Shown here one piece after another: positions 7,788 to 34,315 of a DNA stretch of 34,315 nt. Numbering within the stretch: position 1 is the first letter of the stretch; each line of letters starts with the position of its first letter. The position numbers were made by a program, and so were the translations under genes. The notes under the pieces are model-generated. The model searched no databases. It saw only the letters and a list, made by a program, of their open reading frames with translations, and was not told where the DNA came from. Origin of the DNA: Candidatus Bathyarchaeia archaeon (GTDB taxonomy: Archaea > Thermoproteota > Bathyarchaeia > Bathyarchaeales > Bathycorpusculaceae); contig JAVZNT010000011.1 of NCBI GenBank assembly GCA_038882655.1, positions 1 through 34,315 of the forward strand, written 5' to 3'.

Positions 7788-10166
7788 CTATACTTGCAGT
7801 TTTTGCCTTATGTTCTGTCGTTTCTCTTCCGCTAGTGGTCCAAACTTTTTGATTCTATCAGCGAACATCGCGAAGAGTTCTGCAGCCTTCTTGTAGACTG
7901 GCAATGGAACATAACTGTATCTGAGCCTCATTGTTTCTATGCCGAAGGCTGCAAGCTCTTTACCCATTTCTATCATGCGTTTCTTGGTGAACTTCTCGTC
8001 TATTTCCTCGCTTCCTTCGATTACCAGCACCCCGTCTGCCCCGTATGCAAATGCCATGAGAATTTGCTTCTTTCCGAGAATCGCTGTTGTTGGAACAGCA
8101 ACTATGCGGACGTTTTCCGGATAGTTTGCACGGTCAAGTCCTAAGAAGTCCATGCCCGTGTACCCAACATTCTTGTCGACGAAGGCTATTATTCGATTTT
8201 CTTCTGGTGTTTTGTCGGCTAAAACTCCTCTTATGGTGGCTTTTATTTGCTTTATTGTTGAGTTTTTGAAGTCTATTGCTTCTTGTGGGCATATGGGGAT
8301 GCATGCACCACAGCCAATGCACTGGAAGGGGTCTATTTTAGCTTTACCGTTCTGCAGTGTTATAGCGTTTACCGGGCAAATTTTTATGCATTCGCTACAT
8401 CCGTTGCACAAATCCGTGATGACGAAGGCTTTCTCTGGGCTGGTGGTTACGTACTCGCTTTTTAGGAATAAGGCTGCCCTTGCCGCTGCGCCTAGAGCAT
8501 CTGAAACGGTGTCTCTCACGTCTTTGGGGCTTAGGGCGCATCCACATGCGAAAATTCCTGTGACAAGCGAGTCTACCGGGTCGAGTTTTGGATGCTTCTC
8601 TGTTACGAAACCGTCTTCGCCTAGAGCTACTTTCATTTTTTCAGCCAGCTTCGCCAACCCGTCTGGCGGAACCATTGCAGTTGCCAAAGCTACCATGTCA
8701 AATTCGTCCTCTCTAGTTTCGCCAGTAAGCGTGTCTTCAGCTTGAACCACAAGCTTTCCATTGTTGTTTTTCCACACTTCGGCAACTTTTCCTCGGATGA
8801 AGATTACTCCGGCTTCTTGGTCTCGCCAGTACAAGTCCTCATAGCCCTTTCCGGTCGCCCTAATGTCCGTGTAGTAAATTGTTACGTCTATTCCCAGCAT
8901 TTTTTTGAGAACGAAGGCTTGTTTAAGGGCGTACATGCAGCATATTCGACTGCAGTATGGGATATGGTTCTTATCTCTTGAGCCAGCGCACAAAATTATG
9001 GCGATTTTGCGGACATCGCTTCCATCAGCCCTCTTAACATAGCCCCCTGTCGGTCCAGTTGCCGATGTAAGCCTCTCCAAGTCCATCATTGTTATAACGT
9101 CTTTGTAGATGCCATAGCCATAGTTTTCTAGTTTCCGCGCATCATAAAGCCTGTAGCCAGTAGCCAAAATTATGGCGCCAACATTTAACTCAACAATCTT
9201 GCCGGTGTCGTTTAAGTTTATGGCTTTTGCTGGGCAGTATTGTTCGCATTTTCCACATTTTGTGCATGCTTTGAAGTCTATGGCGTAGGCGGATGGAACG
9301 GCTTGTGGGAACTCTATGTAGGCTGCTTTTCGCTGGGATAAGCCCTCATTAAATTCGTCTGGAACTGTGACGGGACAAACTTTTGCGCATACACCACAAC
9401 TTCTACACTTCTCAACATCAACGCCTCGGGGCTTCATAAAGATGCGAACCGTGTAATTACCGGGGCGACCACTAACATCTTGCACCTCAGCATAAGTTAG
9501 CAAATTCACGTTGGGGTTTCTTCCAACCTCAGCCATTCTTGGCGTTAAAATGCACTGCGCACAGTCAAGCGTGGGAAACACCTTTGTTAGCTTTGCCATG
9601 TTTCCACCTATGCTGGGTTTTCGCTCAACAAGGTGAACCCTATAGCCAGAATACCCAAGCTGGAGAGCAGTCATTATGCCAGCTATTCCGCCGCCCACAA
9701 TAAGGATTTCCCTTGAGCCCTTCTCACTTATCATTTCTAGAGGCTCAAGTTCGAGGCTACGCTCGTATCCTCCCCTAATTAGGCTTATAGCTTTCCTTGT
9801 TGCTTCGGGATTTGGTTTTGGTCCATGAACCCATGAGTCCTGTTCCCTTATGTTCACAAATTCAAGCATGTAGGGATTTAGCCCAGCCCTTTCCAGCACG
9901 CTTTGGAATGTAGCCAAGTGCATTCTTGGCGTGCAGGAAGCCACCACAACTCTGTCGAGGTTTTCCTTTTTTATGGCTTCCGCAATCATTTCTTGGGCTG
10001 GCTTTGAGCACAAATATTTATGGTATTTGGCTACTGCAACACCTTCCCAGTTTTTGACAGCTTCAACAACCGCTTTAACGTCAACAACATCTCCGATATT
10101 GCCACCGCACTCGCATACAAAAATTCCTATGCGAGGTCTTCCTGCTTCATTCTTTTCCTCTGACAT
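7788..10166 (-). CDS. hdrA: Heterodisulfide reductase subunit A (HdrA-1) fused to a cysteine-less MvhD-like C-terminal domain
   Basis: GIFVCECGGNI, LCS, ASCTPR, NIREQDSWVH, GGGIAG, KVFPTLDCAQC, inserted 2x[4Fe-4S] domain, CAGSRD, YCSRICC, GCALSPKD, C-terminal 2x[4Fe-4S] domain, then an MvhD-like tail (YPENVRIV, AFAYGADGVLV). Confidence 0.93.
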   Translation of the reverse strand: MSEEKNEAGRPRIGIFVCECGGNIGDVVDVKAVVEAVKNWEGVAVAKYHKYLCSKPAQEMIAEAIKKENLDRVVVASCTPRMHLATFQSVLERAGLNPYMLEFVNIREQDSWVHGPKPNPEATRKAISLIRGGYERSLELEPLEMISEKGSREILIVGGGIAGIMTALQLGYSGYRVHLVERKPSIGGNMAKLTKVFPTLDCAQCILTPRMAEVGRNPNVNLLTYAEVQDVSGRPGNYTVRIFMKPRGVDVEKCRSCGVCAKVCPVTVPDEFNEGLSQRKAAYIEFPQAVPSAYAIDFKACTKCGKCEQYCPAKAINLNDTGKIVELNVGAIILATGYRLYDARKLENYGYGIYKDVITMMDLERLTSATGPTGGYVKRADGSDVRKIAIILCAGSRDKNHIPYCSRICCMYALKQAFVLKKMLGIDVTIYYTDIRATGKGYEDLYWRDQEAGVIFIRGKVAEVWKNNNGKLVVQAEDTLTGETREDEFDMVALATAMVPPDGLAKLAEKMKVALGEDGFVTEKHPKLDPVDSLVTGIFACGCALSPKDVRDTVSDALGAAARAALFLKSEYVTTSPEKAFVITDLCNGCSECIKICPVNAITLQNGKAKIDPFQCIGCGACIPICPQEAIDFKNSTIKQIKATIRGVLADKTPEENRIIAFVDKNVGYTGMDFLGLDRANYPENVRIVAVPTTAILGKKQILMAFAYGADGVLVIEGSEEIDEKFTKKRMIEMGKELAAFGIETMRLRYSYVPLPVYKKAAELFAMFADRIKKFGPLAEEKRQNIRQKLQV

Positions 10167-10261
10167 GGGCGAATGTCTCCAAATGGCATGATTGTTTAAA
10201 CCCTTAAAAGGGAAAATGCTTTTAAAATCTTATCCTTCAACTTTCAGCAAAGTGACATGAA

Positions 10262-11371
10262 ATGAACCCTCAAGAACTCGTTCAAAAGCACAAGCTTCTG
10301 GAATGCATCCAATGCGGCATGTGCACTGGAAGCTGCCCAGTCGCCAAAAAGGCAAACCTAAACATTAGACGTTACATGCGTGAAGTTTCCGCCTCTAGGA
10401 AGTTAGTGATACATCCGCCCAACGAGTTGTGGAGCTGCACAACATGCACAACTTGTGGTGTGCGTTGTCCTAAAGACTTGAATCCCTACGAGTTTCTTAT
10501 TGACATTAGAAGCATGGCTGTTGAGGAAGGACAAATAGCCCCAACCATAAGGGACGCCTTAGAAAGCATATTCAAAAACGGTAACCCATGGGGAAGGATT
10601 CGCGGGAAACGCACGGAGTGGAGTCAAGGCTTAAATGTCAAGCATATTTCCCAAGGGGCCGAAATCCTATTTTATGTTGGATGCACGCCAGCCTACGACC
10701 CACGAGTGCAAAGTGTTACAAAAAGCCTTGTGAAATGTTTTGAGGCCGCTGGACTTAATTTCGGAGTTTTAGGCGAAGAGGAAAAATGTTGTGGAAGCGA
10801 GGTATACGGCATGGGTGAAAAGGGACTTTTCGATTTCTTGGTTGAAGAGAACATGAAAATTTTTGGCAAGTATGACGTCAAACAGTTGGTTACAAGCTGC
10901 CCTCATGGTTTTCACGCCTTCAAGAATAGGTATAATCAAACAAGCTTTGAGCCCCTGCATCATACGCAGCTTTTGGCAAAGCTTATTGAAACTGGGAAGC
11001 TGACACCGTCAAAAGAAATGGCCAAAAAAGTGATTTATCATGACCCGTGTTACCTTGGCAAACAAAACAACATTTACGATGAACCCCGCAAGGCCATTGA
11101 AAGCATAAAGGGCGTAACGCTTCTAGAGTTTGACCGTTCAAGAAGCAGAAGCCTATGCTGCGAAGGGGGAGGCGGAAGAATGTGGGTTGACATTCCAGGA
11201 CCACGCTTAGCTGAAATCCGCGTCAAGGAAGCTGTATATGTAGGGGCCGACGTATTGGCTGTGGCTTGTCCCTTCTGCATGCTCACAATGGAAGATGCTG
11301 TAAAAACAACTGGTAATGAGGGTAAAATCCAAGTTATGGACGTGGCTGAGCTTTTGGCACTCGCTTTATAA
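10262..11371 (+). CDS. HdrD-like Fe-S oxidoreductase (2x[4Fe-4S] plus two CCG domains)
   Basis: CIQCGMCTGSCP and CTTCTTCGVRCP; GNPWG; CCG elements VGC/EKCCG/TSCPH and HDPC/LCCEGGGG/ACPFC. Divergent from hdrA-1. Confidence 0.88.
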   Translation: MNPQELVQKHKLLECIQCGMCTGSCPVAKKANLNIRRYMREVSASRKLVIHPPNELWSCTTCTTCGVRCPKDLNPYEFLIDIRSMAVEEGQIAPTIRDALESIFKNGNPWGRIRGKRTEWSQGLNVKHISQGAEILFYVGCTPAYDPRVQSVTKSLVKCFEAAGLNFGVLGEEEKCCGSEVYGMGEKGLFDFLVEENMKIFGKYDVKQLVTSCPHGFHAFKNRYNQTSFEPLHHTQLLAKLIETGKLTPSKEMAKKVIYHDPCYLGKQNNIYDEPRKAIESIKGVTLLEFDRSRSRSLCCEGGGGRMWVDIPGPRLAEIRVKEAVYVGADVLAVACPFCMLTMEDAVKTTGNEGKIQVMDVAELLALAL

Positions 11372-11406
11372 AACGCATATGTGCATATAGAATTTGAGGT
11401 TTATTA

Positions 11407-11547
11407 ATGGAGGAAGAAGAAACCTACCACTGTCTGCTTTGTGGCAGGGAAATCACAAGAGAGGAATACGAGATCTATGATGGGCTTTGTCCAGAATGTT
11501 ATGAACTTGAAATTGCCGAACTTGACATGGACTTTGAAGAAGACTAG
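11407..11547 (+). CDS. 46-aa acidic zinc-finger microprotein (CxxC-x15-CxxC), absent from the ORF track
   Basis: Translated by hand: MEEEETYHCLLCGREITREEYEIYDGLCPECYELEIAELDMDFEED*. GAGGT ribosome-binding site at 11396-11400. Confidence 0.75.
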   Translation: MEEEETYHCLLCGREITREEYEIYDGLCPECYELEIAELDMDFEED

Positions 11548-11608
11548 CGGCTCACAAAACAATTAAAAATGGCGTTGCAGCCAAATACTCAGTTAGGGTT
11601 GTTAGGGA

Positions 11609-12544
11609 ATGGAAGACTGGGAATTAATAATTATTGGCGCTGGCGTTGCTGGCTTAACGGCTGGAATCTACGCTGTTAGAAGCGGGTTAAAAGCGTTAAT
11701 TCTTGAGGAGAAGATTGCTGGTGGAACAGCCGCCGACGCCCCAATAATTGAGAACTATCCTGGTTTCGAGCGAATAAGTGGGCTTGAGCTTATGCAGAAA
11801 ATTGTGGCGCAGTGTAGAAGACTCGGCGCAGAAACCCGCGAGTTTGAAAAGGTTACGAGCCTAAACTTGAAGGGCGAGGAGAAAATTGTCGAAACTGCTA
11901 AAGCCGCCTATAAAAGTAAGGCTGTTATAATCGCCTCTGGTACAAGCTACACTGAGCTTGGCGTTCCGGGCGAAAAAGAGTTTCGTGGTAGAGGGGTAAG
12001 CTACTGTGGTATTTGTGATGGCCCCCTCTTTAAGGGTAAACGTGTCTTGGTGGTTGGCGGCGGCAACTCTGCTGTGGCTACAGCCCTCTATTTGGCTGAT
12101 TTGGCTTCAGAGGTTAAGGTGTCACATAGAAGGGACGCCTTTAGAGCCGAAGAGGCGCGTGTTAGGGCTTTATTGGAAAAGCCCAATGTCGAGGTTTTTT
12201 GGAATACTGAGTTGAAAGAGATTAAGGGTGAAAAGCTCGTCAGCAAGGTTGCACTTTTTAATTCCAAAACTGGTGCTGTCATGGAGCTTCCAATAGACGG
12301 AATTTTTGTTCAAGTCGGTGAAAGGCCTAACAGCCAACTCGCTAAGGAAGCTGGAGTGGCTGTGGACGAGCATGGCTACATAATTGTTGATGCTCGTCAA
12401 AGAACAAACATTCCCGGGGTTTATGCGGCTGGTGATGTTACTAATCATCCGGTTAAGCAAGTTGGGACGGCTGTTGGGCAGGGGATAACCGCCGCTTTAG
12501 AGGTTTATGGTTTTATTCGCAGACCTTACTATTTCAAGCAGTAA
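11609..12544 (+). CDS. trxB: Thioredoxin-disulfide reductase (low-Mr type)
   Basis: GAGVAG FAD motif, IENYPG, GRGVSYCGICDG redox CxxC, VGGGNSA, HRRDAFRA (NADPH-type), TNIPGVYAAGD. Confidence 0.92.
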   Translation: MEDWELIIIGAGVAGLTAGIYAVRSGLKALILEEKIAGGTAADAPIIENYPGFERISGLELMQKIVAQCRRLGAETREFEKVTSLNLKGEEKIVETAKAAYKSKAVIIASGTSYTELGVPGEKEFRGRGVSYCGICDGPLFKGKRVLVVGGGNSAVATALYLADLASEVKVSHRRDAFRAEEARVRALLEKPNVEVFWNTELKEIKGEKLVSKVALFNSKTGAVMELPIDGIFVQVGERPNSQLAKEAGVAVDEHGYIIVDARQRTNIPGVYAAGDVTNHPVKQVGTAVGQGITAALEVYGFIRRPYYFKQ

Positions 12545-12649
12545 TGCGCCAATTTTGCTCCAAAAATATTATATTGTTCTATGGTCTTTCATTCAGAACT
12601 TCTAGCGCTGATGCGTTTAAATAAGCAGCGGGTTTGGAGATATGATGGA

Positions 12650-13858
12650 ATGGGCGAAGAACAAACGGTTGTTGTATTTATAAACCAAGATTACTGTAGT
12701 CGCTGTTCCATATGTTATTCTATATGCCCCTATGAAGCCATTAAACGAGATGCTGAAACTGGCAAGGTGGAGATAGACCTCCAGAAGTGCCAAGTGTGCG
12801 GGATATGCTACAGTGCATGTCCAGTTTTCGCCATAGAAATTGTCTACTACGATTATGAAAGTTTGGTAGACTATGTGGAAAGCGAGCGGAAAAGAACTGG
12901 AACTGAAACGCTTGTGCTCATGTGCCGTGGGAACTCGCCTTCAACAAGGGAAGTTGAGGAGATTTTGACTGAGCAGGGTTTAAGCATAAAGGAGTACATC
13001 CCACTTCGTTTGCCATGTTCCGGGCGAGTTCCAACAGAATTCATATTCAAGGTTTTGGGTTCTGGCATTAGAAATGTTGTTTCAATTCAATGTGAGGATT
13101 TGTTCTGTCGCTTCAAAGAAGGCACAAAAATCAACACGAGGCGGCTTTTCCTTGGAAGAAGGGTTCTTGAAGAGCTGGGCTTCAGCAAAGACGCTGTCAG
13201 AGTTGTTAAATATTCTCGGAAAGCTGTTTATGATACTGCAAAGTGTGTTGGCTGCGACAAATGTGTCTTTATATGTCCATACGCCGCTATAGAAGCGGAG
13301 CCTTTCACCACGCCAAAAATCCTAAGCGACTATTGTATGGGCTGTGGCGCATGTGCTTTAGTCTGTCCACATCATGCAATTCAGGTTAAGGGCTTTGAGT
13401 TTGAGAATGTCTTGAGGCGTTATGGTGATTCAGCGATTAGGCTGAAGGCTGAGGGCAAATCACCCCTAATTCTTGTCTTTAGTTGTCAGTGGTCTGAGTT
13501 TTCCGCCCTTGATAATCCGGAGGGCGTTCTCTTCAAGCGGAATGTTGTTATGCTTGAGGTTCCATGCTTCAAAGCTCTTGATCCAGTTCACGTTGTCAAT
13601 GCGCTGGAAAATGGCTTTGACGGGGTTATGGCTGTTGTGTGTTCCGCTGAGGATTGCAAGCTTCAAGAGGGGCGCGACACAGCTGAGAGAAACATGACTG
13701 TGCTTAAGGATGTTTTAAAGAAGATGGGCCTAATTGAGCGTTTTGAGCTTTATGAGGCGTCTCCAAGGGATGCTGGGAAATTTGAGGAGAGACTTGAAGA
13801 TTTTGTGAGGATGATTGCGGCTTTACCGCCAATAAAACCTTTGAAAATGGAGGCTTAG
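12650..13858 (+). CDS. Polyferredoxin-like protein with tandem (2x[4Fe-4S] ferredoxin + MvhD/FlpD domain) x2
   Basis: Four CxxCxxCxxxCP motifs in two pairs, each pair followed by an MvhD-like domain (LMC..LPCSGRV..QCEDLFC; FSCQW..VPC..GFDGV..VCSAEDC). Start ATG 12650 (MGEEQ) preferred over 12581. Confidence 0.85.
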   Translation: MGEEQTVVVFINQDYCSRCSICYSICPYEAIKRDAETGKVEIDLQKCQVCGICYSACPVFAIEIVYYDYESLVDYVESERKRTGTETLVLMCRGNSPSTREVEEILTEQGLSIKEYIPLRLPCSGRVPTEFIFKVLGSGIRNVVSIQCEDLFCRFKEGTKINTRRLFLGRRVLEELGFSKDAVRVVKYSRKAVYDTAKCVGCDKCVFICPYAAIEAEPFTTPKILSDYCMGCGACALVCPHHAIQVKGFEFENVLRRYGDSAIRLKAEGKSPLILVFSCQWSEFSALDNPEGVLFKRNVVMLEVPCFKALDPVHVVNALENGFDGVMAVVCSAEDCKLQEGRDTAERNMTVLKDVLKKMGLIERFELYEASPRDAGKFEERLEDFVRMIAALPPIKPLKMEA

Positions 13859-13862
13859 CCCT

Positions 13863-16098
<2,236 letters not shown>

Positions 16099-24592: not shown

Positions 24593-24624
24593 CCTAACTT
24601 CAATTCCGGTAACTGGTGAGGAGA

Positions 24625-25572
24625 ATGGAAAAATCTCAAAAATTGAAGTTTGCGTTTTACTGGGCAGCAAGCTGTGGCGGATGCGAAATCGCTGTTCTAG
24701 ACATTAACGAAAAAATCTTAGACGTCATAGCTAAAGCAGACATCGTGTTTTGGCCTGTAGCCATGGACATTAAATATAAGGATGTGAAAGCCATGCCAGA
24801 CAAAAGCATAGACGTCTGCTTCTTTAACGGTGCAATAAGAACGGAGGAAAACGAGTACATGGCGAAACTGCTAAGGCAGAAATCAAAAGTGCTGGTGGCT
24901 TTTGGCTCATGTGCATGCGATGGCGACGTAATAGGCTTGGCGAACTTGTGGAATAAGGAGAAAATTTTCGAAAGGGTGTACTTTGAAACTCCATCAACAA
25001 AGAATCCGGGAAAAGTAACCCCTCAAACTCGGTTGAAGGTTGCACAAGGAGAGCTGGAACTTCCAGAGTTTTATGATACGGTTAAGACTTTGGCGCAAAC
25101 CGTCGACGTAGACTACTTTATTTCTGGCTGTCCTCCTCCAGTTCCAAGGATAATTGAAGCTTTAGACACCATTTTAAGTGGGGGACTTCCACCTAAAGGC
25201 TCCAGCTTTCTACTAAACAAGTCTATCTGTGATGAATGCCCAAGGGAAAAGAAAGACCGAAAAATAACACAGGTCAAAAGAATCTATGAGATAGAAGACG
25301 ACTACAAAACATGTTTCTTAGACCAAAGCGTCATATGCATGGGACCCGCCACAAGAGGCGGATGCGGTGCCCAATGCTTAAAGGCGAATATACCTTGCAC
25401 TGGATGCGGTGGACCGGCGCCCCGCGTGGCAGACCAAGGCGCAGCCATGATAAGCGCCTTCGCCTCCATAGTCACGGACCCAAAAGTCATAGAACAAGTC
25501 GTCGACCCTGTTGGAACCTTTTACAAGTATTCTTTGGCTAACTCGATTTTGCGGAGGAGGGTGATGCGATGA
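24625..25572 (+). CDS. mvhG: F420-non-reducing [NiFe] hydrogenase small subunit
   Basis: ASCGGC, FGSCACDG, GCPP, ICDECP, CFL..CMGPATRGGC..C...PCTGC. ATG 24625 follows GGTGAGGAGA; GTG 24616 is an alternative. Confidence 0.9.
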   Translation: MEKSQKLKFAFYWAASCGGCEIAVLDINEKILDVIAKADIVFWPVAMDIKYKDVKAMPDKSIDVCFFNGAIRTEENEYMAKLLRQKSKVLVAFGSCACDGDVIGLANLWNKEKIFERVYFETPSTKNPGKVTPQTRLKVAQGELELPEFYDTVKTLAQTVDVDYFISGCPPPVPRIIEALDTILSGGLPPKGSSFLLNKSICDECPREKKDRKITQVKRIYEIEDDYKTCFLDQSVICMGPATRGGCGAQCLKANIPCTGCGGPAPRVADQGAAMISAFASIVTDPKVIEQVVDPVGTFYKYSLANSILRRRVMR

Positions 25573-27026
25573 AAGAGATAGTTATAAACCCCATCACAAG
25601 GCTGGAGGGCCACGGAAAGATAACCATATTCCTAAATGAAGAAGGCGACGTTGACGAAGCCTACTTCCAAGTTCCAGAACTCCGCGGCTTTGAAAAGTTC
25701 TGTGAAGGTCGAAGGGCTGAAGATTTGCCAATAATAACAACGCGCATTTGCGGCGTCTGTCCCGTAGCCCACCACATGGCGAGCGCCAAAGCCCTAGACG
25801 CGGCTTTCAATGTTGAACCGCCGGAGCCCGCCAAAAAATTGCGGGAACTCATGTACTGCGGTTACTACTTATACGACCACACATTGCACTTCTACTATCT
25901 TGGCGGTCCAGATTTTGTGGTCGGGCCAGATGCGCCACCGGAAAAACGCAACGTTTTAGGCGTTATTGAAAAAGCCGGCTTAGAAATTGGCAAAGAAGTC
26001 ATAAAGCATAGGGCTTATGGCCAAAAGATAACCGAAATCTTAGGCGGAAAGGCAACCCACCCAGTAAGCGCATGCATTCCCGGCGGATTTGCAAGGCCAA
26101 TTTCAGAGGACGAGCGGCGAGAAATTGAGCGTATGGTGAGAAGCTGTCTAGAATTCGCCAAGTTCTCGCTGAAACTCTTCGACGACATAGTACTGAAAAA
26201 CACCGCTTACATAGACTTGATTAAAAGTGAGGCTTACACGCTCAAAACCTACTATATGGGGTTAGCGGATAAAAACAACAAGGTGAACTTCTACGATGGA
26301 AACGTCCGCGTAGTAGACCCAAATGGGCGTGAGTTCGTCAAATTCTCTCCCAAAGAGTATTTAGACGTCATAGAAGAACATGTGGAGCCATGGACCTACG
26401 TGAAGCTTCCGTACTTGAAGAAGGTTGGTTGGAAAGGTCTTGTTGACGGTCCTGAAAGTGGTGCCTACCGTGTTGGTCCCCTTGGAAGGCTTAATGCTGC
26501 TGATGGCATGGCAACACCCCTGGCCCAAGCCGAATACGAGCGCATGTACGCAACCCTAGGCGGGAAACCTGTTCACAACACTTTGGCTTACCACTGGGCT
26601 AGGCTCATAGAGCTTTTATACGCTGCTGAACGTGCCCTAGAACTTATAACAGACCCGGAAATAACCAGCAAAAATGTTCGCAACAAGCCCGGCAAACCAG
26701 GCGAAGGCGTCGGAATCGTGGAAGCAGCAAGGGGCACGCTTATACATCATTATCAGTTTGACGAGAATGCTTTGGCTAAGAAGGTCAATTTGATAGTGGC
26801 TACCGTTAATAATGCGCCGAGCATTTGCATGTCCATTAGAAACGCTGCCAAAGGCTTAATCAAGAAGGGTAAGGTGACCGACGGCATATTGAACATGATT
26901 GAGATGGCTTTTAGGGCTTACGACCCATGTTTCGCATGCGCCACCCATTTTGCGGTTGGTCAAATGCCTTTGGAGGTGGAGATTTATGATAGCGAGAAAA
27001 GGCTCATCCAAAAAATCAAAAGGTAA
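25569..27026 (+). CDS. mvhA: F420-non-reducing [NiFe] hydrogenase large subunit (group 3c by context)
   Basis: TRLEGHG, RGFE, L1 RICGVC, EAARGTLIHHY, L2 RAYDPCFACATH followed by a cleavable C-terminal extension; ATGA overlap with mvhG. Confidence 0.94.
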   Translation: MKEIVINPITRLEGHGKITIFLNEEGDVDEAYFQVPELRGFEKFCEGRRAEDLPIITTRICGVCPVAHHMASAKALDAAFNVEPPEPAKKLRELMYCGYYLYDHTLHFYYLGGPDFVVGPDAPPEKRNVLGVIEKAGLEIGKEVIKHRAYGQKITEILGGKATHPVSACIPGGFARPISEDERREIERMVRSCLEFAKFSLKLFDDIVLKNTAYIDLIKSEAYTLKTYYMGLADKNNKVNFYDGNVRVVDPNGREFVKFSPKEYLDVIEEHVEPWTYVKLPYLKKVGWKGLVDGPESGAYRVGPLGRLNAADGMATPLAQAEYERMYATLGGKPVHNTLAYHWARLIELLYAAERALELITDPEITSKNVRNKPGKPGEGVGIVEAARGTLIHHYQFDENALAKKVNLIVATVNNAPSICMSIRNAAKGLIKKGKVTDGILNMIEMAFRAYDPCFACATHFAVGQMPLEVEIYDSEKRLIQKIKR

Positions 27027-27057
27027 AGTTGGAAGGAGGAAAAGGAGGGAAACAAAA

Positions 27058-29478
27058 GTGAAAGCCGTTGAAGAAGCTAAAGTTGGAGTCTTCCTATCCG
27101 ACTGCGGTGGGCAAATAGCAAAAATCCTCGACTTTGAAGCCTTAACAAACTTTGTTAAGGCTGTTCCGGGAGTTGCCCTTGTTGCCCGAGGAAGCGAGTT
27201 TTGGCGGGGCGAAGGCCTAAAAACCATAGTAGACGCCATTAAAACTAAAAAGGTAAACCGCGTCGTCGTCGCAGAGACTATTCCAAAAATAAGCGAAATA
27301 GTTGTTGCAAAAGCCGTTGAAGAGGCTGGACTCAATCCGCATTTAGTGGAGGTTTTAGACCTTAAAGACCATTGTGCATGGCCCCACAAGGACACGCCAA
27401 AAGAGGCTACTGAAAAAGCGAAGGCAATGCTTCTAGCCGCCATCGAAAAAGCCAAACTTCTAGAACCAATAGAGAAAGCCGAATTTCCAGCTGTCAAATC
27501 TGTCCTCGTTATTGGCGGCGGAATAGCTGGAATGCAGGCAGCTGAAGATTTGGCGGATATGGGCTTCCAAGTCCACTTAATAGAAAAAGAGCCTTTTGTA
27601 GGCGGTTTGGCCGCTAAAGCCGTTCGCTTCTTCCCCACAGACGACTGTGCCATATGCATTCAGTCTCCAGCAACGGACCTAAAAACCGTGACCCAAACAT
27701 CGAGGAAATGCGTTTACCGTTCCGGCTTCTCGGAGATTCCAAACTTGAGTGTTTTGACAAACGCTAAAGTCGTTAAGGTTGAGGGCGGCCCGGGAAACTT
27801 CAAGGTGACTGTTGAACGGAAACCCCGCTACGTGGACGAGAAAAAGTGTGTGGCATGCGACCTATGCACAAGCGTCTGTCCCGTCGAAGTGCCAGACGAA
27901 TATAACGCCAAGCTCACAAAGCGGAAAGCCATCTACATAAACAAGCCTTTGGTTTACCCGCCAGCCTACGCCATAGACGCCAAAGCCTGCAAGTTCCATG
28001 AATGCGCCAAATGCGTTGAGGTTTGCCCAACAAAAGCCATCAATCTGGACCAGAAAATTGAACATGTGACACTTAACGTCGGGAGCATAATTGTGGCTAC
28101 CGGCTTCCGTGAATACGACCCAAGTGTCATAAAGGAGTACCATTATGGCGAATATCCAGACGTGATAACGCATCTGGAACTGGCGAGGATGCTGGACGCC
28201 TTCGGCCCAGTTGGAGGCGTGCCCATTAGGCCCTCAGATAGGAAACCGGCAAAACGCATTGTCTTTGTGCAGTGTGTTGGTTCAAGGGACCGGCGCTGGA
28301 ACCCCTACTGTTCAAGCATTTGCTGTATGATTTCGCTGAAGCATGCAACACTGATTAAGGAGGAGTTTCCAGACGCGGATGTGACCATATGCTACATAGA
28401 CATCCGCACAACAGGCAGAGAACACGAATACTATTATGAAAAAGCCAGAGAAATGGGCGTGAAATTTGTTAAGGGAAGGCCATCCGAAATAATCCACGAC
28501 CCAGCCACAAACACGCTGATTGTTGAGGTTGAAGACGAGCTTCTGAGAAGGCTTATGGAATTGGAAGCCGACTTGGTGGTTTTAGCCACAGCCATGGTCC
28601 CATCAGAAGACACGAAAGAGCTGGCGAAAATCTTAGGCATAGAGTTAGATCAAGACGGCTTCTTTAAGGAGTACAACGCCAAGCTTAGGCCTACTGAAAC
28701 AAAGCGGAGGGGCATATTCATATGCGGAGGCGCCGTCTTCCCAAAGGACGCCCCAACAGCTTCGCTTCATGCCCATTCTGCGGCTGTTAAGGCGGCCAAG
28801 TTCCTCATGAACGGTAAAATCACCAAAGACTTGAAAGTGGCTGTAGTCAACCAAGACTATTGTGGCAACTGCCAATTCTGTCCGGTAACATGTCCATATG
28901 GCGCCATAACACTTGAGCCGAAAGGCGACAGCCACTTCGTGGCTAAAATTTCAGAATTATTGTGCGAGGGCTGCGGCGTCTGTGTTGGCACATGCCCAGT
29001 TGGAGCCATAGAACTGCGCCACCTAAGGCCAAACCAAATATACGCCCAAATAAAGGCGCTGCTATCTGTTAATGGTGCTTCTAAACCGCTGGTGCTGGCC
29101 TTCAGCTGTTCAGAATGCGGCAACGCAGCAGTGGACTCTTCTGGAATGGCTATGATGAGCTATCCAGCCAACGTCAGAGTTTTGCGAGTCCCATGCACTG
29201 GCATAGTTCAAGTCCAGCATATCCTAGAAGCCTTCAAGGCTGGAGCCCAGGGCGTTATGGTGGTTGGCTGCAAGCCCGACGGATGCCACTACGAGGTTGG
29301 AAGCCAAAAGGCCCAAAAGAAAGTGGAAATGGCGAAGATGCTCCTCCAAGCCTACGGCATAGAACCGAAAAGACTCGAAATGTTCAATCTAGTCTACATA
29401 GAAGGCGACAAATTCGCAGAAGCAGCCAAAGCCATGACAGAAAAAGTGGAAAGGCTAGGCAACCTCCAACTCGCCTAG
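27058..29478 (+). CDS. hdrA: Heterodisulfide reductase subunit A (HdrA-2) fused to an intact MvhD domain; N-terminal Fe-S domain degenerate
   Basis: GGGIAG, FPTDDCAIC, two ferredoxin domains, CVGSRD, YCSSICC, FPKD, then MvhD (FSCSEC, RVPCTG, GCKPDGCHY). Start GTG 27058 behind GGAGG; the track's 26899 start overlaps mvhA. Confidence 0.92.
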   Translation: MKAVEEAKVGVFLSDCGGQIAKILDFEALTNFVKAVPGVALVARGSEFWRGEGLKTIVDAIKTKKVNRVVVAETIPKISEIVVAKAVEEAGLNPHLVEVLDLKDHCAWPHKDTPKEATEKAKAMLLAAIEKAKLLEPIEKAEFPAVKSVLVIGGGIAGMQAAEDLADMGFQVHLIEKEPFVGGLAAKAVRFFPTDDCAICIQSPATDLKTVTQTSRKCVYRSGFSEIPNLSVLTNAKVVKVEGGPGNFKVTVERKPRYVDEKKCVACDLCTSVCPVEVPDEYNAKLTKRKAIYINKPLVYPPAYAIDAKACKFHECAKCVEVCPTKAINLDQKIEHVTLNVGSIIVATGFREYDPSVIKEYHYGEYPDVITHLELARMLDAFGPVGGVPIRPSDRKPAKRIVFVQCVGSRDRRWNPYCSSICCMISLKHATLIKEEFPDADVTICYIDIRTTGREHEYYYEKAREMGVKFVKGRPSEIIHDPATNTLIVEVEDELLRRLMELEADLVVLATAMVPSEDTKELAKILGIELDQDGFFKEYNAKLRPTETKRRGIFICGGAVFPKDAPTASLHAHSAAVKAAKFLMNGKITKDLKVAVVNQDYCGNCQFCPVTCPYGAITLEPKGDSHFVAKISELLCEGCGVCVGTCPVGAIELRHLRPNQIYAQIKALLSVNGASKPLVLAFSCSECGNAAVDSSGMAMMSYPANVRVLRVPCTGIVQVQHILEAFKAGAQGVMVVGCKPDGCHYEVGSQKAQKKVEMAKMLLQAYGIEPKRLEMFNLVYIEGDKFAEAAKAMTEKVERLGNLQLA

Positions 29479-29511
29479 CTAAAGACGAAGATTCCCATGG
29501 AGTGAGCAAAA

Positions 29512-30018
29512 ATGGCTGAAGAAAAACCCCTTGACTTCGCAAGGGAGATAACAAGCAGACTCGGCGGAGAAACAATAACACGCTGTTACCAGTGCGGCAC
29601 ATGCGCCAGCGCATGCCCAGTCGCAAGAACAACCGAGCGCTACAACCCCCGCCAAATAATAAGACTAGCCCTTCTGGGACAGAGAGACGAGGTTCTCAAA
29701 GGCGGTGCTATATGGCTTTGCGCCTCATGCTACAACTGCCAAGAACGCTGCCCCCAAAAAGTTGAGATTGCAGACTTGATATACGCCTTAAGAAACATAG
29801 CCATCAGAGAAGGCAACATGCCTGCCGTATACACAGAATTCGCAGCGGGACTCATAAGTGAAGGACGCCTGGCTCCAATATCAAAATTCTTGGAAAAGAA
29901 AAGAGCAGACTATGGCTTGCCACCGCTAAAACCAACAGGCATAGAAGATATCAAAAAGATTCTAGCGGCAACAGGTTTCGACAAAATCATGTTTAAGAAA
30001 GAAGGTGCACCACAATGA
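29512..30018 (+). CDS. hdrC: Heterodisulfide reductase subunit C
   Basis: CYQCGTCASACP, YNPRQII, IWLCASCYNCQERCP. Confidence 0.93.
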   Translation: MAEEKPLDFAREITSRLGGETITRCYQCGTCASACPVARTTERYNPRQIIRLALLGQRDEVLKGGAIWLCASCYNCQERCPQKVEIADLIYALRNIAIREGNMPAVYTEFAAGLISEGRLAPISKFLEKKRADYGLPPLKPTGIEDIKKILAATGFDKIMFKKEGAPQ

Positions 30019-30890
30019 CAAGCTACGCCCTATTTTTGGGCTGCACAATACCAGCCCGCCAACCCCACTACGAACTCGCAGCAAGAAAAGCCCTAACAAA
30101 ACTTGGAATACAACTCGTAGACATGGAAGGCGCAACATGCTGCGCCCCACCGCCGCTTCAGTCTATAGACTTAGAGACAAGCCTTGCAATAGCCGCCTAC
30201 AACATTTGCCTAGCAGAAGAAGCAGACCTAAACATAATCACGCTTTGCACCGGATGCTTCGAATCCCTAACCATCGCCAACCACCTCCTAAAAGGAAAAC
30301 CAGAACTGCGCGAAAAAATTAACAAAATTTTGGCTGAGGTTGGTAAAGAGTTTAAAGGCACAAAAGAGGTTAGGCATTACCTACAAGTTTTAATTAACAA
30401 TATAGGCGTAGACCGCCTAAAACAAACCATAGTTAAGCCCCTAAGCAACCTTAAGGTAGCCGCCTTCTCTGGATGCCACCTATTACGCCCAAGCGAACTT
30501 CTACGCTTTGATGACCCAGAACGCCCCCGTATATTCGACACCCTAATAGAGACTCTTGGAGCCAAAAGCATACCCTATAAGAACAAGCTTCGATGCTGTG
30601 GAGGGCTTCTCAGAGGCTATGCGGATGATGTGGCATTAGCCATAGCAAGAGACAAAATTGTAAACGCCTACAACGCCGGGGCAGACTGCATATCAACCCT
30701 ATGCCCCTTCTGCTTCCTAACCCTAGACCTTGGACAAATGCTAATAAAAACAACCTACAAGGAAGAGTACAACTTACCAATAATTCACTACGCTGAACTG
30801 TTAAGCCTAAGTCTAGGCGTGGAGCCAAAAGAACTTGCATTAGACTTTCACAAGGTAAAAATAGACAAAGTTTTAGAAAAGATAGGCTGA
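30015..30890 (+). CDS. hdrB: Heterodisulfide reductase subunit B
   Basis: YALFLGCTIP, TCCAPP, LCTGC, FSGCHLLRP, RCCGG, LCPFC; ATGA overlap with hdrC. Confidence 0.93.
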   Translation: MTSYALFLGCTIPARQPHYELAARKALTKLGIQLVDMEGATCCAPPPLQSIDLETSLAIAAYNICLAEEADLNIITLCTGCFESLTIANHLLKGKPELREKINKILAEVGKEFKGTKEVRHYLQVLINNIGVDRLKQTIVKPLSNLKVAAFSGCHLLRPSELLRFDDPERPRIFDTLIETLGAKSIPYKNKLRCCGGLLRGYADDVALAIARDKIVNAYNAGADCISTLCPFCFLTLDLGQMLIKTTYKEEYNLPIIHYAELLSLSLGVEPKELALDFHKVKIDKVLEKIG

Positions 30891-31194: not shown

Positions 31195-31659
31195 TTAATT
31201 TCTATAGTTCACGGTTGTCTTTAGCTTTGGAATCTCCACCTCTAAAGCCTTATTATTGTTACACTTTATAATCATGTTTTCAACTTGCAGCTCGTCAGTT
31301 GGAAGGTTAAGTTTCCAACATGTATTTTCTAGGCATATTTGTAAGCCGTCATCAAATTTATTGAGCGTTACCCGTTGATCCTTGCAGCGGCACTGCATCA
31401 AAACCTTAACATAATTTTCATCTTCGAAAATGTCTATTAAGGGCTCCTCAGCATGAGGCAATGGAATAAAATGTTTTGCTGTTGGGCTTTCCTCAAACCT
31501 TTCCTCAATAACATACTTCTTTTTCAAAAGCCTATCTATAGGCTCCAAGGGGTTCTCGCCTCTAGGTTCCTCTTCTTTGAGGCTTTCCACCAGTTTTTTA
31601 GCTAAAACTTTGCAGAAGACGTCTATATTCCTCAAAGCCTCTTCAAAATCATCACTCAT
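31195..31659 (-). CDS. Divergent Hsp20/alpha-crystallin-like protein
   Basis: EEPLIDIFEDENYVKV and NNKALEVEIPK resemble the first and last strands of archaeal small heat-shock proteins; five Cys residues are atypical. Confidence 0.6.
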   Translation of the reverse strand: MSDDFEEALRNIDVFCKVLAKKLVESLKEEEPRGENPLEPIDRLLKKKYVIEERFEESPTAKHFIPLPHAEEPLIDIFEDENYVKVLMQCRCKDQRVTLNKFDDGLQICLENTCWKLNLPTDELQVENMIIKCNNNKALEVEIPKLKTTVNYRN

Positions 31660-31749: not shown

Positions 31750-32823
31750 CTATTTCTTTCCAATAGCCAACGGCAAAGTCCTAACATGCTTAACAGCCCG
31801 AACAACATCACCAACATATTTACCAGGATCTTCTAGAGCTCTGTTTATGGCTATTTCAGCTATTGTTGCGCCTTTGTCGGCAATCTTGCTTAGGCAGGAG
31901 AGAATGGACCTCACATAGGGGATTTCTGGGGCTTCCCTCATAAGCCTATTTGAGTCTACTTCAAGCACTTTTCTCATTTCCAGTAGCTGGTTTGCCACCT
32001 TCAAATCCCTTGTGAAGATGCATTCAATAGCCTTCTGAAGAATTGTCTGGGTTAGCTCACTTAAATGGAATATTCGGTCGACAACATCCTCTGGAAGCCT
32101 ATTTCTATAAATTTCCATTTCAAGAACCTCTCTAGCTAAGTCTTCAGAATAATCTGCAATCAACTCCAAATACTGCAGAATCAGCCTAGCAGCCGGTATG
32201 AAAAGCACGTCCACCATGCCAACCTCTTCGGCTATGGCTGGCTTTACCTGTGCTGATAAAAGAAGACGTACCGCCAAATAGTAGATTTTGTCCGCTTCGT
32301 CTTCTCTGGCTATTGCCTCCTCCACAATATCATATTTTTTCTCTTTAAAGCCCTGCATTGCCTCAGAAAGTATGGTTGAAGCTATGAGCGCAAGCCTTCG
32401 TATGAGCATGTCAAGCTTAAACTTTGTAGAATCTATAGAGCATTGCAAGAGTATGCTTTTAGGAGTCTCTTCAAGAATGCCCAGCCCAATGAGTTTTTGA
32501 ACTATCCTTCGAACTTCGTCTATATGGTTTTTGCCTATGCGGCTTGTAGAAATCACCCGTATAACATCCCGCCCAAGAATATAGCTTCCGACAATAATCC
32601 TTTCAAGCATGCCAGGCTCGTCGCATGCATCAGCATTTACAATATATTCCTCAGCTTCTTCCTTTTGGGCTATATGCCTCGGCATTATTTTTAGGGAACC
32701 ATCTCTTTCCGGCATTATGAATAGTAGGTCTCGCGGTTTTATGCCTTGTTCTTTAATCCATTCGTTTGGAAGCGAAACAGTCATTGTTGAGTGTCCTACT
32801 CTTTGAACTTTTCTAATTTCCAA
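31750..32823 (-). CDS. AbrB/SpoVT-PhoU domain regulator (archaeal phosphate-uptake regulator family)
   Basis: RKVQRVGHSTMTVSLPNEW (AbrB-like N-terminus), GSYILG, GLGILEET and two PhoU-type helical repeats (EDEADKIY, LELIADY, LSKIAD). Confidence 0.88.
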   Translation of the reverse strand: MEIRKVQRVGHSTMTVSLPNEWIKEQGIKPRDLLFIMPERDGSLKIMPRHIAQKEEAEEYIVNADACDEPGMLERIIVGSYILGRDVIRVISTSRIGKNHIDEVRRIVQKLIGLGILEETPKSILLQCSIDSTKFKLDMLIRRLALIASTILSEAMQGFKEKKYDIVEEAIAREDEADKIYYLAVRLLLSAQVKPAIAEEVGMVDVLFIPAARLILQYLELIADYSEDLAREVLEMEIYRNRLPEDVVDRIFHLSELTQTILQKAIECIFTRDLKVANQLLEMRKVLEVDSNRLMREAPEIPYVRSILSCLSKIADKGATIAEIAINRALEDPGKYVGDVVRAVKHVRTLPLAIGKK

Positions 32824-32949
32824 ACGTTTCCCTCTACTTACAGTATTTACTTTAACATATTTATTTATTCTATATTTTCTATTTACGTTAGATATATATC
32901 TTTCGCTTTGTTCTATATATCACGCAGATGTAAAGGAGGTTGATGTGAA

Positions 32950-33540
32950 ATGTCTGAATGGAAAACCGTAAGCATAAGGCAAGAGCTAATAAAAGAAATC
33001 GAGAGACTCCTAAGGACAGGACGCTACAGAAGCATATCAGAATTCGTCTCAGAAGCTATAAGGCTACGCTTGGAAGAATTGATGAGGGCTGAGGGAATTC
33101 CAGCCGCAAAACGTGAAGAGCTTTTGGCAATACCGGAACAGCTGCTATACACGCCAAAGCATACATGGGCACAAATAACTCCTGAAGGAAACATCCGTGT
33201 GGGTGTTTCAGACTACGCTCAGAGGCATCTCAAAGGCATTGCAAACATAATGACCGATCCTGTTGGGAAGGAAATAGCAAAAATGGAGCCCTTCGGTGTG
33301 GCTGAAACTTGGATGTTTATGTTTGATTTATACGCGCCCGTAAGCGGCAAAATTGTTAAAATTAACGAACAATTGAAGGATAAGCCTTACTTGGTGAATG
33401 AGGATCCATATGGTGAGGGCTGGATAATTGAGATTAAGCCCAAAAACTCTTTGACGCTTGAGGAGGAGCTCAAAAGCCTTCTAGGCTCTAGGGAGTACAA
33501 CAAGTGGGTTAGCAAGCTTGAGGGAAGACTCCGCGAATAA
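32950..33540 (+). CDS. Ribbon-helix-helix domain fused to a glycine-cleavage H-protein-like domain lacking the lipoyl-lysine
   Basis: N-terminal WKTVSIRQELIKEIERLL..GRYRSISEFVSEAIRLRL is CopG/RHH-like. The C-terminal LLYTPKHTW, RVGVSDYAQ, YAPVSG, VNEDPYGEGWI match GcvH. Strong RBS AGGAGGT. Confidence 0.9.
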   Translation: MSEWKTVSIRQELIKEIERLLRTGRYRSISEFVSEAIRLRLEELMRAEGIPAAKREELLAIPEQLLYTPKHTWAQITPEGNIRVGVSDYAQRHLKGIANIMTDPVGKEIAKMEPFGVAETWMFMFDLYAPVSGKIVKINEQLKDKPYLVNEDPYGEGWIIEIKPKNSLTLEEELKSLLGSREYNKWVSKLEGRLRE

Positions 33541-33548
33541 ACTGTCCA

Positions 33549-33569
33549 TTTCCCCTTCTTTTTCTTTTT
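33549..33569 (+). terminator. Putative archaeal oligo-T terminator
   Basis: Pyrimidine tract TTTCCCCTTCTTTTTCTTTTT immediately after the RHH-GcvH stop codon. Confidence 0.5.
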
Positions 33570-33663
33570 GAAAATTTTATGTTATGCTTATGTTACGTTT
33601 GATTTAGATGGCTTAATATATCAGGTTTAACATTCAAATATGCTTCTAAGAAGGCTGGTTAGC

Positions 33664-34315
33664 TTGACGGAAAAACCCCCTCAAGAGGTTAGGAAATTAC
33701 CGCCTTGTCGGGCAGCATGCCCAGCGCATGTCAATGTTCAGGCTTATGTGGCTCTTATTCAAAGGGGCAAGTTCAAAGAAGCCGTTGAAGTTATAAGGCG
33801 AGATTTGCCTTTTCCGGCTATTTGTGGGCGAGTTTGCTTCAGCCCATGTGAAGATGCTTGCGCACGGGTTAACCTTGACCAAGCAGTAGCTGTGCGCGCC
33901 TTGAAAAGACTTGTAGCGGACATCGAACGTGAACAAGGAAGAGTTGTCGCCGAACCGGTGCCAAAAAAGTACAGCGAAAAAATCGCCATAATCGGTGCTG
34001 GACCAGCTGGATTGACAGCGGCTTACGAACTCGCGAAGCTGGGTTATCCTGTTACAGTTTTTGAGCGGATGGCTGAGCCCGGCGGCATGATGCGCTACTG
34101 CATACCAGACTTCCGCTTGGAAAAATTCGTTGTTGCGAATGAGATAGCCTACATTAAGGACGTAGGTGTTGAAATTAAAACTGGTGTTGAGTTTGGCAAG
34201 GACATAACCATTGAAAACCTTAAAAAGGACGGTTATAAGGCAATTTTCTTTGCCATTGGCACACAATTGGGCATGAAGTTAAACGTGCCAGGCGAAGACT
34301 TAGAAGGCGTAATAA
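33664..34315 (+). CDS. GltD/NfnB-like Fe-S flavoprotein, 3'-truncated by the window edge (absent from the ORF track)
   Basis: Hand translation from TTG 33664 (in-frame ATG 33640 possible): [60 protein letters not shown]; no stop before the end. Confidence 0.9.
   Translation, partial: MTEKPPQEVRKLPPCRAACPAHVNVQAYVALIQRGKFKEAVEVIRRDLPFPAICGRVCFSPCEDACARVNLDQAVAVRALKRLVADIEREQGRVVAEPVPKKYSEKIAIIGAGPAGLTAAYELAKLGYPVTVFERMAEPGGMMRYCIPDFRLEKFVVANEIAYIKDVGVEIKTGVEFGKDITIENLKKDGYKAIFFAIGTQLGMKLNVPGEDLEGVI

Follow-up and report, generated by a model that had tools for sequence, protein, structure and literature searches.

A ribbon-helix-helix domain fused to an H-protein fold without its lipoyl lysine: a candidate local transcription regulator of Bathyarchaeia

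Results

The window analyzed here is the whole stretch of 34,315 nucleotides of contig JAVZNT010000011.1 from a Candidatus Bathyarchaeia archaeon (assembly GCA_038882655.1). Near its 3' end lies a gene, hereafter the fusion gene, that joins an N-terminal ribbon-helix-helix (RHH) module to an H-protein fold, the fold of the glycine cleavage protein GcvH (Table 1). Pfam places RHH_1 at residues 6-43 (E 0.0018, 18.6 bits) and GCV_H at residues 65-188 (E 3e-30, 105 bits). The linker is the least conserved part of the protein, with a mean column identity of 0.68 versus 0.82-0.83 in both domains. HMMER matches the protein to the E. coli H-protein chain 3a8i_E with an E of 5.5e-21. The AlphaFold2 monomer model has a mean predicted local distance difference test score (pLDDT) of 86.6, exceeding 90 in the H-protein domain, and its N-terminal part contains helices at residues 9-23 and 29-47 followed by a short linker helix. 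The modeled H-domain superimposes on solved H-proteins with target template modeling (TM) scores of 0.84-0.93 and root-mean-square deviations of 1.1-1.8 Å (Foldseek ranks 1-12). An initial annotation had described the open reading frame (ORF) as an RHH domain preceding a complete H-protein fold, and this description is correct, because Pfam, NCBIfam, the HMMER alignments, and the AlphaFold2 model agree. A homodimer prediction scored 0.36 against a mark of 0.42 and counts neither way on dimerization.

The H-domain lacks the lipoyl lysine. Met122 stands opposite that residue in HMMER alignments with solved H-proteins, which show no gap along the hairpin (fgvaetwMfmfdlyapvsgk in the query versus fgeveStKSvsdlyapisgk in a solved H-protein). 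The substitution of methionine for lysine at the canonical lipoylation site, and with it the impossibility of lipoylation there, had been proposed in the initial annotation and both are borne out. The entire 196-residue protein contains no cysteine. It scores 102.8 bits with the TIGR00527 gcvH equivalog model of NCBIfam, under the cut-off of 115.85, and 122.1 bits with the looser PRK01202 GcvH subfamily model, over its cut-off of 117; the public name GcvH probably stems from the latter. Scores with TIGR03077 (not_gcvH; 45 bits versus a cut-off of 144) and NF045810 (GcvH_rel_desulf; 43 versus 150) are far below threshold.

Judged from the alignments, loss of the lipoyl lysine defines the fused family. 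The lysine is absent from all 17 aligned fused sequences, which carry M, L, W, F, C, or N in that column or have it disrupted by an insertion, and is present in 3/3 unfused GcvH paralogues as part of E-S-x-K. A species scan of one genome per species, made with a five-sequence alignment, returned 80 loci, 69 archaeal and 11 bacterial. Among the best copies of the archaeal loci the column holds M (66), L (2), or W (1), counts that are inflated and partly circular, as is the apparent conservation of the hairpin, because the hairpin itself served as one of the two scan patterns. The second tandem copies found at 12 of these loci, the search of 41 related genomes, and a phmmer scan (both searches are described below) are free of this circularity. 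The second copies have W (8), P (2), L (1), or S (1) in the column, and no fused representative from the unbiased phmmer scan has lysine there. The lysine is kept in 11/11 bacterial loci. Whether orthologues might carry it had been raised as a check, and no RHH-bearing orthologue or paralogue does.

A quick maximum-likelihood tree of the H-domain alone, made from 145 of the top 150 representatives plus added sequences and rooted at the midpoint, places all 17 RHH-bearing rows and 13 other lysine-less rows on one side, with Shimodaira-Hasegawa-like approximate likelihood ratio support of 89, which is below 95. The other side holds all 107 lysine-bearing rows and 8 scattered lysine-less rows. 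Most of the 13 RHH-less members of the lysine-less clade resemble shortened or frameshifted gene calls. The topology fits, without proving, a single origin of the fusion together with loss of the lysine. The eight scattered representatives (P0166, P0229, P0224, P0247, P0164, P0173, P0174, and P0268) lack both RHH and lysine and lie among lysine-bearing GcvH; they may reflect independent losses, or possibly alignment error.

The hairpin and the adjoining cleft fall into distinct classes among the paralogues: WMFMF, WWFTY, an inserted GWPFVIH, and a class with C-R-K-C plus D-L-C-C-P. The representatives P0133, P0135, P0129, and P0148 belong to this last, four-cysteine class, in which the two motifs flank the hairpin, or have a cysteine-rich C-terminal tail (e.g., CxxCxxxxC). 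Such cysteine-bearing paralogues could be metal- or redox-sensing variants. Surface charge was tried as a proxy for ligase recognition and abandoned, as the isoelectric point (pI) of the H-domain (4.7-6.2) overlaps that of canonical paralogues and does not discriminate.

The N-terminal segment is basic (pI 9.7) and weakly matches ParD (E 4.4e-4), YlcI/YnfO (8e-4), CdrS, and NikR models, with values ranging from E 4e-4 to 0.07. The NikR model covers only residues 6-48 of the fusion protein. A family profile of residues 1-52 from 14 members, searched against PDB chains, found the RHH of NikR as its best match (E 0.0074), followed by a CopG-family protein (0.065) and ParD/CopG antitoxins (0.09-0.7). 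Relatives of the module also stand alone. These proteins of 60-98 amino acids are encoded on long contigs and carry the helix-2 signature YRSISEFVSEAIRLRLEE; P0286 and P0287, each of 60 amino acids, have this signature in common with the fusion, and P0275, P0276, and P0278 (81-98 amino acids) consist of an RHH and a short tail unrelated to the H-domain. Three stand-alone relatives carry PF01402 in precomputed annotation, and some are named Arc/MetJ or CopG regulators at source. The other short RHH matches are frameshift products. On sequence grounds, the RHH forms a module in its own right. Proteins of the RHH type dimerize, and the dimer binds DNA by means of a two-stranded ribbon. A toxin-antitoxin reading of the RHH was rejected for want of a toxin-like neighbor at the locus.

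The fusion might have been unique to the present assembly, a doubt voiced in the initial annotation, and it is not: it was recovered full-length in 24 of 41 related genomes by a six-frame search and at the 69 archaeal loci of the species scan. A word-indexed search returned 1144 relatives, the best 120 of which come from many assemblies and sources, are nearly all 196 amino acids in length (195-201) with 82-100% identity, and, where named, are called glycine cleavage system protein GcvH. In two of the related genomes the copy is damaged, by a frameshift in G029 and by a contig end in G014; an apparent split gene in the former and an apparent RHH-only gene in the latter were rejected for these reasons. 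The archaeal loci are labeled Bathyarchaeia, Bathyarchaeota, Thermoproteota, or uncultured archaeon, and the best match is full-length in 66 of them. The bacterial loci are ordinary GcvH, since the match begins only at query residue 19-59. In the phmmer scan of 1.84 billion representatives at 50% identity, about a dozen clusters span both domains, in addition to P0121. Neighbors in the ESM Atlas were Bathyarchaeota GCV_H clusters only, with no other lineage or architecture among them. Because it recurs across relatives and species loci, the fusion is fixed in a Bathyarchaeial lineage and is no assembly artifact. Full-length copies and conserved domains indicate that the gene is under selection rather than decaying. 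Full-text literature searches, covering listings, abstracts, and selected passages, found no published RHH-H-protein fusion or lysine-less H-protein regulator. A raw-read RNA run, of which ~12% was read, yielded 0 matching reads and has no bearing on expression. Two other runs, catalogued as metatranscriptomes although probably made from DNA, contained only short contigs of related strains.

Tandem fused paralogues occur at 12 of the 69 archaeal loci. In the pairs L020:2188-3393, L021:9344-10633, and L022:6291-7468 the upstream copy has WWFTY or GWPFVIH and the downstream copy WMFMF. P0121 carries two RHH-H units in tandem within one chain of 417 amino acids; its model has a predicted TM score of 0.42 and a pLDDT of ~50-66 in the first RHH, and MAFFT stacked the single-unit rows on its second unit, so that the model does not inform on an intramolecular RHH dimer. 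Tandem paralogues and the covalently doubled unit are both in keeping with a dimeric module. In genome G006 the whole AbrB-PhoU/fusion locus is present twice on different contigs at 98% identity (G006:C5:59844-60431 and G006:C20:4953-5540), which could mean that the bin mixes strains or that the locus was recently duplicated.

The source genome (1.02 Mb, 84% complete) yielded no other GCV_H gene and no GcvT, which at this completeness does not show their absence. Its two weak GCV_H matches are biotin carriers with an EAMKM motif, and it has GcvP subunits and an LplA-like gene, the latter on another contig. Genomes of the same genus mostly carry a second, canonical, lysine-bearing GcvH of ~147 amino acids at ~40% identity. 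GcvT is present in 5/5 near-complete relatives and adjoins the canonical GcvH in G011. The missing GcvH and GcvT of the source genome are best explained by its incompleteness, and since relatives carry both, the fusion gene is an extra paralogue. The absent lysine, the score under the equivalog cut-off, the different gene linkage, and the canonical paralogue in relatives all argue that the fusion protein is not a GcvH in function.

The most constant neighbor of the fusion gene is a divergent upstream gene for an AbrB-PhoU protein, found at 60/69 archaeal loci; its orthologue (at least 50% identity) tracks the fusion among relatives. A GltD-like gene lies downstream at 54/69 archaeal loci and in 13/14 wider loci of relatives, where its product reaches a full length of ~567-577 amino acids, and is the first gene of a downstream redox cluster. 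In the 14 wider loci it is followed, contig permitting, by HdrA-like, HdrC, HdrB, MvhG, and MvhA genes. The usual order is GltD-like, MvhD-HTH, HdrA, MvhD, HdrC, and HdrB, often with MvhG and MvhA, and it persists beside paralogues of only 45-62% identity. At locus L020 the cluster comprises a GltD-like protein of 577 amino acids with a C-terminal 2x[4Fe-4S] domain, a 1006-residue double HdrA-like protein, MvhD, HdrC, HdrB, and an HycI protease. The Hdr genes near the fusion are of the Mvh type, with MvhD, MvhG, and MvhA present, and not the sHdr of sulfur oxidizers. The initial annotation had placed the fusion gene between hdrABC and the GltD-like gene. That placement is too simple: the gene, divergent from AbrB-PhoU, heads a second GltD/HdrA/HdrCB/Mvh cluster.

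Other contexts were also encountered. In a subgroup of loci, a gene for a TauE/SafE transporter precedes a NuoE-type 2Fe-2S module, and in L086 TauE is followed by GltD. The cluster around the frameshifted copy of G029 (L023:9074-15762) comprises DsrH, two DsrE, Sulf_transp, TusA, a DsbD-like protein, and DUF169. Taken together, redox and sulfur-handling genes are the theme common to these contexts. The L023 cluster also contains a lysine-bearing GCV_H protein of 157 amino acids and a DGC-domain protein; a lysine-bearing H-protein in a sulfur-relay context resembles, by analogy, the arrangement of LbpA, an H-protein-like lipoate-binding protein. A second ORF beside the frameshifted copy looked similar.

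A palindrome, TAGTA-TT-TACTA, is kept together with TATA-like boxes and the leader in 12 orthologous intergenic regions between AbrB-PhoU and the fusion gene; the window has it as cAGTATTTACTt at 32841-32852. The exact form AGTAnnTACT occurs in the intergenic region at 28/67 loci (41 sites) versus 4 sites elsewhere in 343 kb, and TAGTAnnTACTA with at most one mismatch occurs in 24/66 upstream 160-nt regions versus 24/1798 background windows; these counts overstate independence because the genomes compared are related. The preferred sites are at about -90 relative to the fusion ATG and 18-30 nt away from the start of AbrB-PhoU. In L024, L025, L026, L030, and L031 the intergenic region is ~450-540 bp and holds a small ORF (peptide ...AISWRIVATLTT...YYxHERxWN...). 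Where this ORF splits the region the palindrome is doubled, with one near each gene, ~350-420 bp apart. The palindrome was rejected as a regulon motif, as the source genome has 2 sites versus ~1.8 expected. An Rfam scan of positions 32600-33800 gave a single match, to a Pseudomonas small RNA model, at 22.8 bits versus a gathering score of 70, which was taken as chance. The spacer downstream of the fusion gene is possibly a terminator and second promoter.

Several further features of the neighborhood were noted. Locus L020 (5184-5954) encodes a 257-residue fusion of MvhD/FlpD (E 1e-42) with an ArsR-type helix-turn-helix, HTH_5 (E 1.9e-5). The orthologue of this MvhD-HTH gene lies just past the 3' end of the window, and it could be a second regulator bearing a domain of the redox cluster. 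Positions 7788-16098 of the window hold a further redox cluster with an HdrA-MvhD fusion, an HdrC/B-like fusion (Fer4 + CCG), a thioredoxin-reductase-like flavoprotein, an MvhD-ferredoxin, and an NfnA/NfnB-like pair. The hdrA-mvhD ORF as listed, with TTG at 26899, shares 128 nt (26899-27026) with the end of mvhA (25569-27026), and because of this overlap its true start probably lies further downstream.

Table 1. Features of the fusion gene and its surroundings, by position in the window
Feature	Position	Strand	Details
RHH + lysine-less H-protein fusion gene	32950..33540	+	196 amino acids plus stop, ATG start; from ORF, domain profiles, orthologues (196 amino acids, 83-100% identity)
Ribbon-helix-helix module, residues 1-47	32950..33090	+	Putative strand WKTVSIR, helix 9-23, turn G-R-Y-R-S, helix 29-47; pI 9.7
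Linker, residues 48-64, one short helix at 52-60	33091..33141	+	From column identity and predicted model
H-protein (GCV_H) fold, residues 65-188	33142..33513	+	From Pfam, genome search, Foldseek
Degenerate lipoylation hairpin E119-T-W-M-F-M-F125	33304..33324	+	Met122 (33313-33315, ATG) in place of the lipoyl lysine
126-bp divergent promoter region, AbrB-PhoU to fusion gene	32824..32949	.	AT-rich, TATA-like boxes, AAGGAGG before ATG
Candidate operator cAGTATTTACTt	32841..32852	.	Core AGTA-TT-TACT palindrome at 32842-32851
99-bp spacer, fusion gene to GltD-like gene	33541..33639	.	T-rich tract ttctttttcttttt, AT-rich box; read from sequence
mvhG, mvhA, hdrA-mvhD, hdrC, hdrB	24616-30890		Window annotation
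Cys-rich Zn-ribbon-like ORF, 80 amino acids	30941-31183	+	Kept beside AbrB-PhoU in many relatives
154-residue ORF	31195-31659	-	No Pfam or NCBIfam match; kept beside AbrB-PhoU in many relatives
AbrB/MazE-like + PhoU-domain gene, 357 amino acids	31750..32823	-	PhoU E 1e-14, MazE_antitoxin E 5e-4 (Pfam)
5' part of gene for GltD-like Fe-S flavoprotein	33640..34314	+	Fer4_20, NAD-binding domains; PRK12771-like

Discussion

The fusion protein is probably a Bathyarchaeia-specific local transcription factor with the layout of NikR, in which the effector domain would be a lipoyl-carrier fold without its attachment site. A probability of about 0.6 is given to this reading. The evidence for it is indirect and consists of the RHH signature, the relatives that have an RHH alone, the position close to the promoter, and the conserved palindrome; a place beside a divergent AbrB-PhoU gene and a GltD/Hdr cluster would be typical of a local regulator. 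Confidence in any particular signal for the H-domain is much lower.

Several results weigh against a regulatory role. The RHH_1 score is just under the Pfam gathering score of 20.5 bits, the PDB matches of the RHH profile are weak (E 0.007-0.09), and the monomer model has both RHH helices with no N-terminal strand. Only 28 of the 67 loci have an exact palindrome, which is not enriched genome-wide (2 sites versus ~1.8 expected) and might just as well be bound by the AbrB-PhoU protein. The genomes compared are related and are not independent samples, and conservation of the hairpin is inflated by its use as one of two scan patterns. The frameshifted copy of G029 lies in a different context of DsrE, TusA, and sulfur transport. 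Finally, the H-domain has no cysteine and no recognizable ligand motif.

If the fusion protein is a regulator, the beta-ribbon that reads the DNA would be built from two RHH modules. This dimer, or one made of two different tandem paralogues, would bind the promoter region shared by AbrB-PhoU and the fusion gene, possibly at AGTA-nn-TACT, and would control the adjacent redox genes, whether GltD-like, HdrA, MvhD, HdrCB, and Mvh hydrogenase or TauE with the NuoE-type module. The E-T-W-M-F-M-F hairpin and the neighboring cleft, the region that presumably holds the loaded lipoyl arm in pea H-protein structures, would be the surface that receives the signal, acting through partner docking, a hydrophobic or thiol ligand, or higher oligomerization. 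The division of hairpin and cleft into distinct classes among the paralogues suggests that specificity is set at this surface.

A bolder form of the regulatory reading can be entertained, but is doubtful. The H-fold may have been repurposed as a sensor whose hairpin replaces the lipoyl arm and docks in a partner channel that normally takes a lipoyl or dithiol arm. The partner would be an Hdr-type CCG active site, the GltD-like flavoprotein, or a lipoate enzyme, and transcription of the operon would directly report the occupancy or redox state of the electron-bifurcating complex that it encodes. Tandem heterodimers, with hairpins of the WMFMF, WWFTY, GWPFVIH, or four-cysteine version, would integrate two signals. 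If true, this would be the first known regulator with a pseudo-lipoyl carrier as its sensor, and it would provide a handle on the substrate of the Bathyarchaeial Hdr.

The fusion protein might instead be a subunit of the neighboring machinery. As an accessory subunit, assembly factor, or electron/sulfur-relay adaptor of the GltD/HdrA/HdrCB/Mvh complex, it would not bind DNA; the RHH would only dimerize the protein and the H-fold would dock as LbpA presumably does with sHdr. Tight, long-range synteny with Hdr/Mvh/GltD genes speaks for such a role, as do the sulfur and redox character of the other contexts (TauE with the NuoE-type module; DsrE/DsrH/TusA/Sulf_transp), the exposed hydrophobic hairpin, which suggests a buried protein interface, and the nature of H-protein folds as protein-docking modules. 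However, neither lysine nor cysteine is available for any cofactor or persulfide, the N-terminal module looks like an ordinary basic RHH and has relatives among stand-alone regulators, and a 99-bp spacer with a T-rich tract parts the fusion gene from the GltD-like gene. AbrB-PhoU, at 60 of the 69 loci, is also a steadier partner than the Hdr genes, at 54. It seems unlikely, on this balance, that the protein is such a subunit.

Rather improbable is the possibility that the H-domain is solely an oligomerization scaffold, comparable to the C-terminal domain of NikR in tetramerization, such that RHH dimers bridge two operators and nothing is sensed. A scaffold would account for the hydrophobic hairpin, the tandem and covalently doubled forms, and, at loci with an inserted small gene, the two palindromes spaced ~350-420 bp from each other. 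Diversification of the hairpin and cleft into classes is, however, a pattern more typical of a site that determines specificity.

It is very improbable that the protein serves in glycine cleavage or as a lipoyl carrier modified at another residue, even though its fold is complete, it passes the PRK01202 cut-off (122.1 versus 117 bits), and the 84%-complete source genome has GcvP with no other GCV_H gene found. Every fused member lacks the lysine, for which two sources (PMC6067878 and bioRxiv 10.64898/2026.10.01.755906) report strict conservation in GcvH and LbpA, the score is under the gcvH equivalog cut-off, and relatives have a separate canonical GcvH, beside GcvT in G011. A decaying, pseudogene-like paralogue or a gene-calling artifact, as frameshifted or shortened copies (G029, P0271, P0273, P0284, and P0140) might suggest, is hardly credible for a 196-residue frame that is intact at 66/69 archaeal loci in many independent assemblies with both domains well conserved.

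Hundreds of Bathyarchaeia entries are named glycine cleavage system protein GcvH and yet are unable to carry lipoate. Metabolic reconstructions that count the fusion as GcvH would be mistaken, about glycine cleavage, for example, or about the reductive glycine pathway. The fusion gene marks a conserved regulatory node of AbrB-PhoU, RHH-H, and MvhD-HTH genes beside electron-bifurcation genes of the Hdr/Mvh/GltD type. The hosts are a class of abundant uncultured archaea, and a binding partner of the H-domain could point to the substrate of Hdr or to the signal that controls it. The finding would carry greater weight if the H-domain reads out the state of the Hdr/Mvh machinery.

Among known proteins, GcvH (PF01597, TIGR00527) has the same fold as the H-domain of the fusion, with 35-45% sequence identity. 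The fusion keeps the E before the hairpin, the D-L-Y-x-P-x-S-G after it, and N-x-D-P-Y-x-x-G-W. It differs in having Met, Leu, Trp, or an insertion at the lipoyl lysine and in the N-terminal RHH and linker; moreover, its gene is unlinked to gcvT or gcvP and is linked instead to AbrB-PhoU and Hdr genes.

LbpA resembles the fusion in being an H-protein-like fold encoded beside Hdr-type genes. One report gives LbpA a strictly conserved lysine and usually two conserved cysteines (PMC6067878), and another describes the lipoyl lysine as strictly conserved in both GcvH and LbpA (bioRxiv 10.64898/2026.10.01.755906). The fusion has neither the lysine nor a cysteine, whereas LbpA has no DNA-binding module. 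An LbpA would also be expected in an sHdr cluster with dedicated lipoate-ligase and maturation genes, whereas the fusion is beside a Mvh-associated Hdr and the LplA-like gene lies elsewhere. The link to LbpA and sHdr that the initial annotation suggested is not supported, given the missing lysine and cysteine and the Mvh-type Hdr context.

GcvH-L of Streptococcus and Staphylococcus is an H-protein paralogue used outside glycine cleavage and is described as a lipoic acid carrier (PMC12440151). The structure 5a35 matches the H-domain of the fusion with an E of 8.6e-6. The RHH-bearing systems compare as follows. NikR provides the best PDB match of the RHH module (E 0.0074), and its chain is likewise laid out with the RHH first and a regulatory domain at the C-terminus. 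In NikR the latter is a nickel-binding, ACT-like, tetramerizing domain, whereas the corresponding part of the fusion is an H-protein fold with no metal ligands evident. To our knowledge, no GcvH-L, TIGR03077, or NF045810 protein is fused to a DNA-binding domain.

The stand-alone CopG/Arc/MetJ-type RHH regulators of Bathyarchaeia (e.g., P0286, P0287, and P0275) share with the fusion the predicted strand-helix-turn-helix pattern and the helix-2 signature, at 51-80% identity in the RHH. They differ in having no H-domain, being 60 amino acids long or ending in a short unrelated tail. Set beside these systems, the fusion would represent a regulator of the RHH kind whose effector domain is new, kept in one archaeal class and systematically misannotated. 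If it is a regulator, the H-protein fold joins the small set of effector domains that accompany an RHH.

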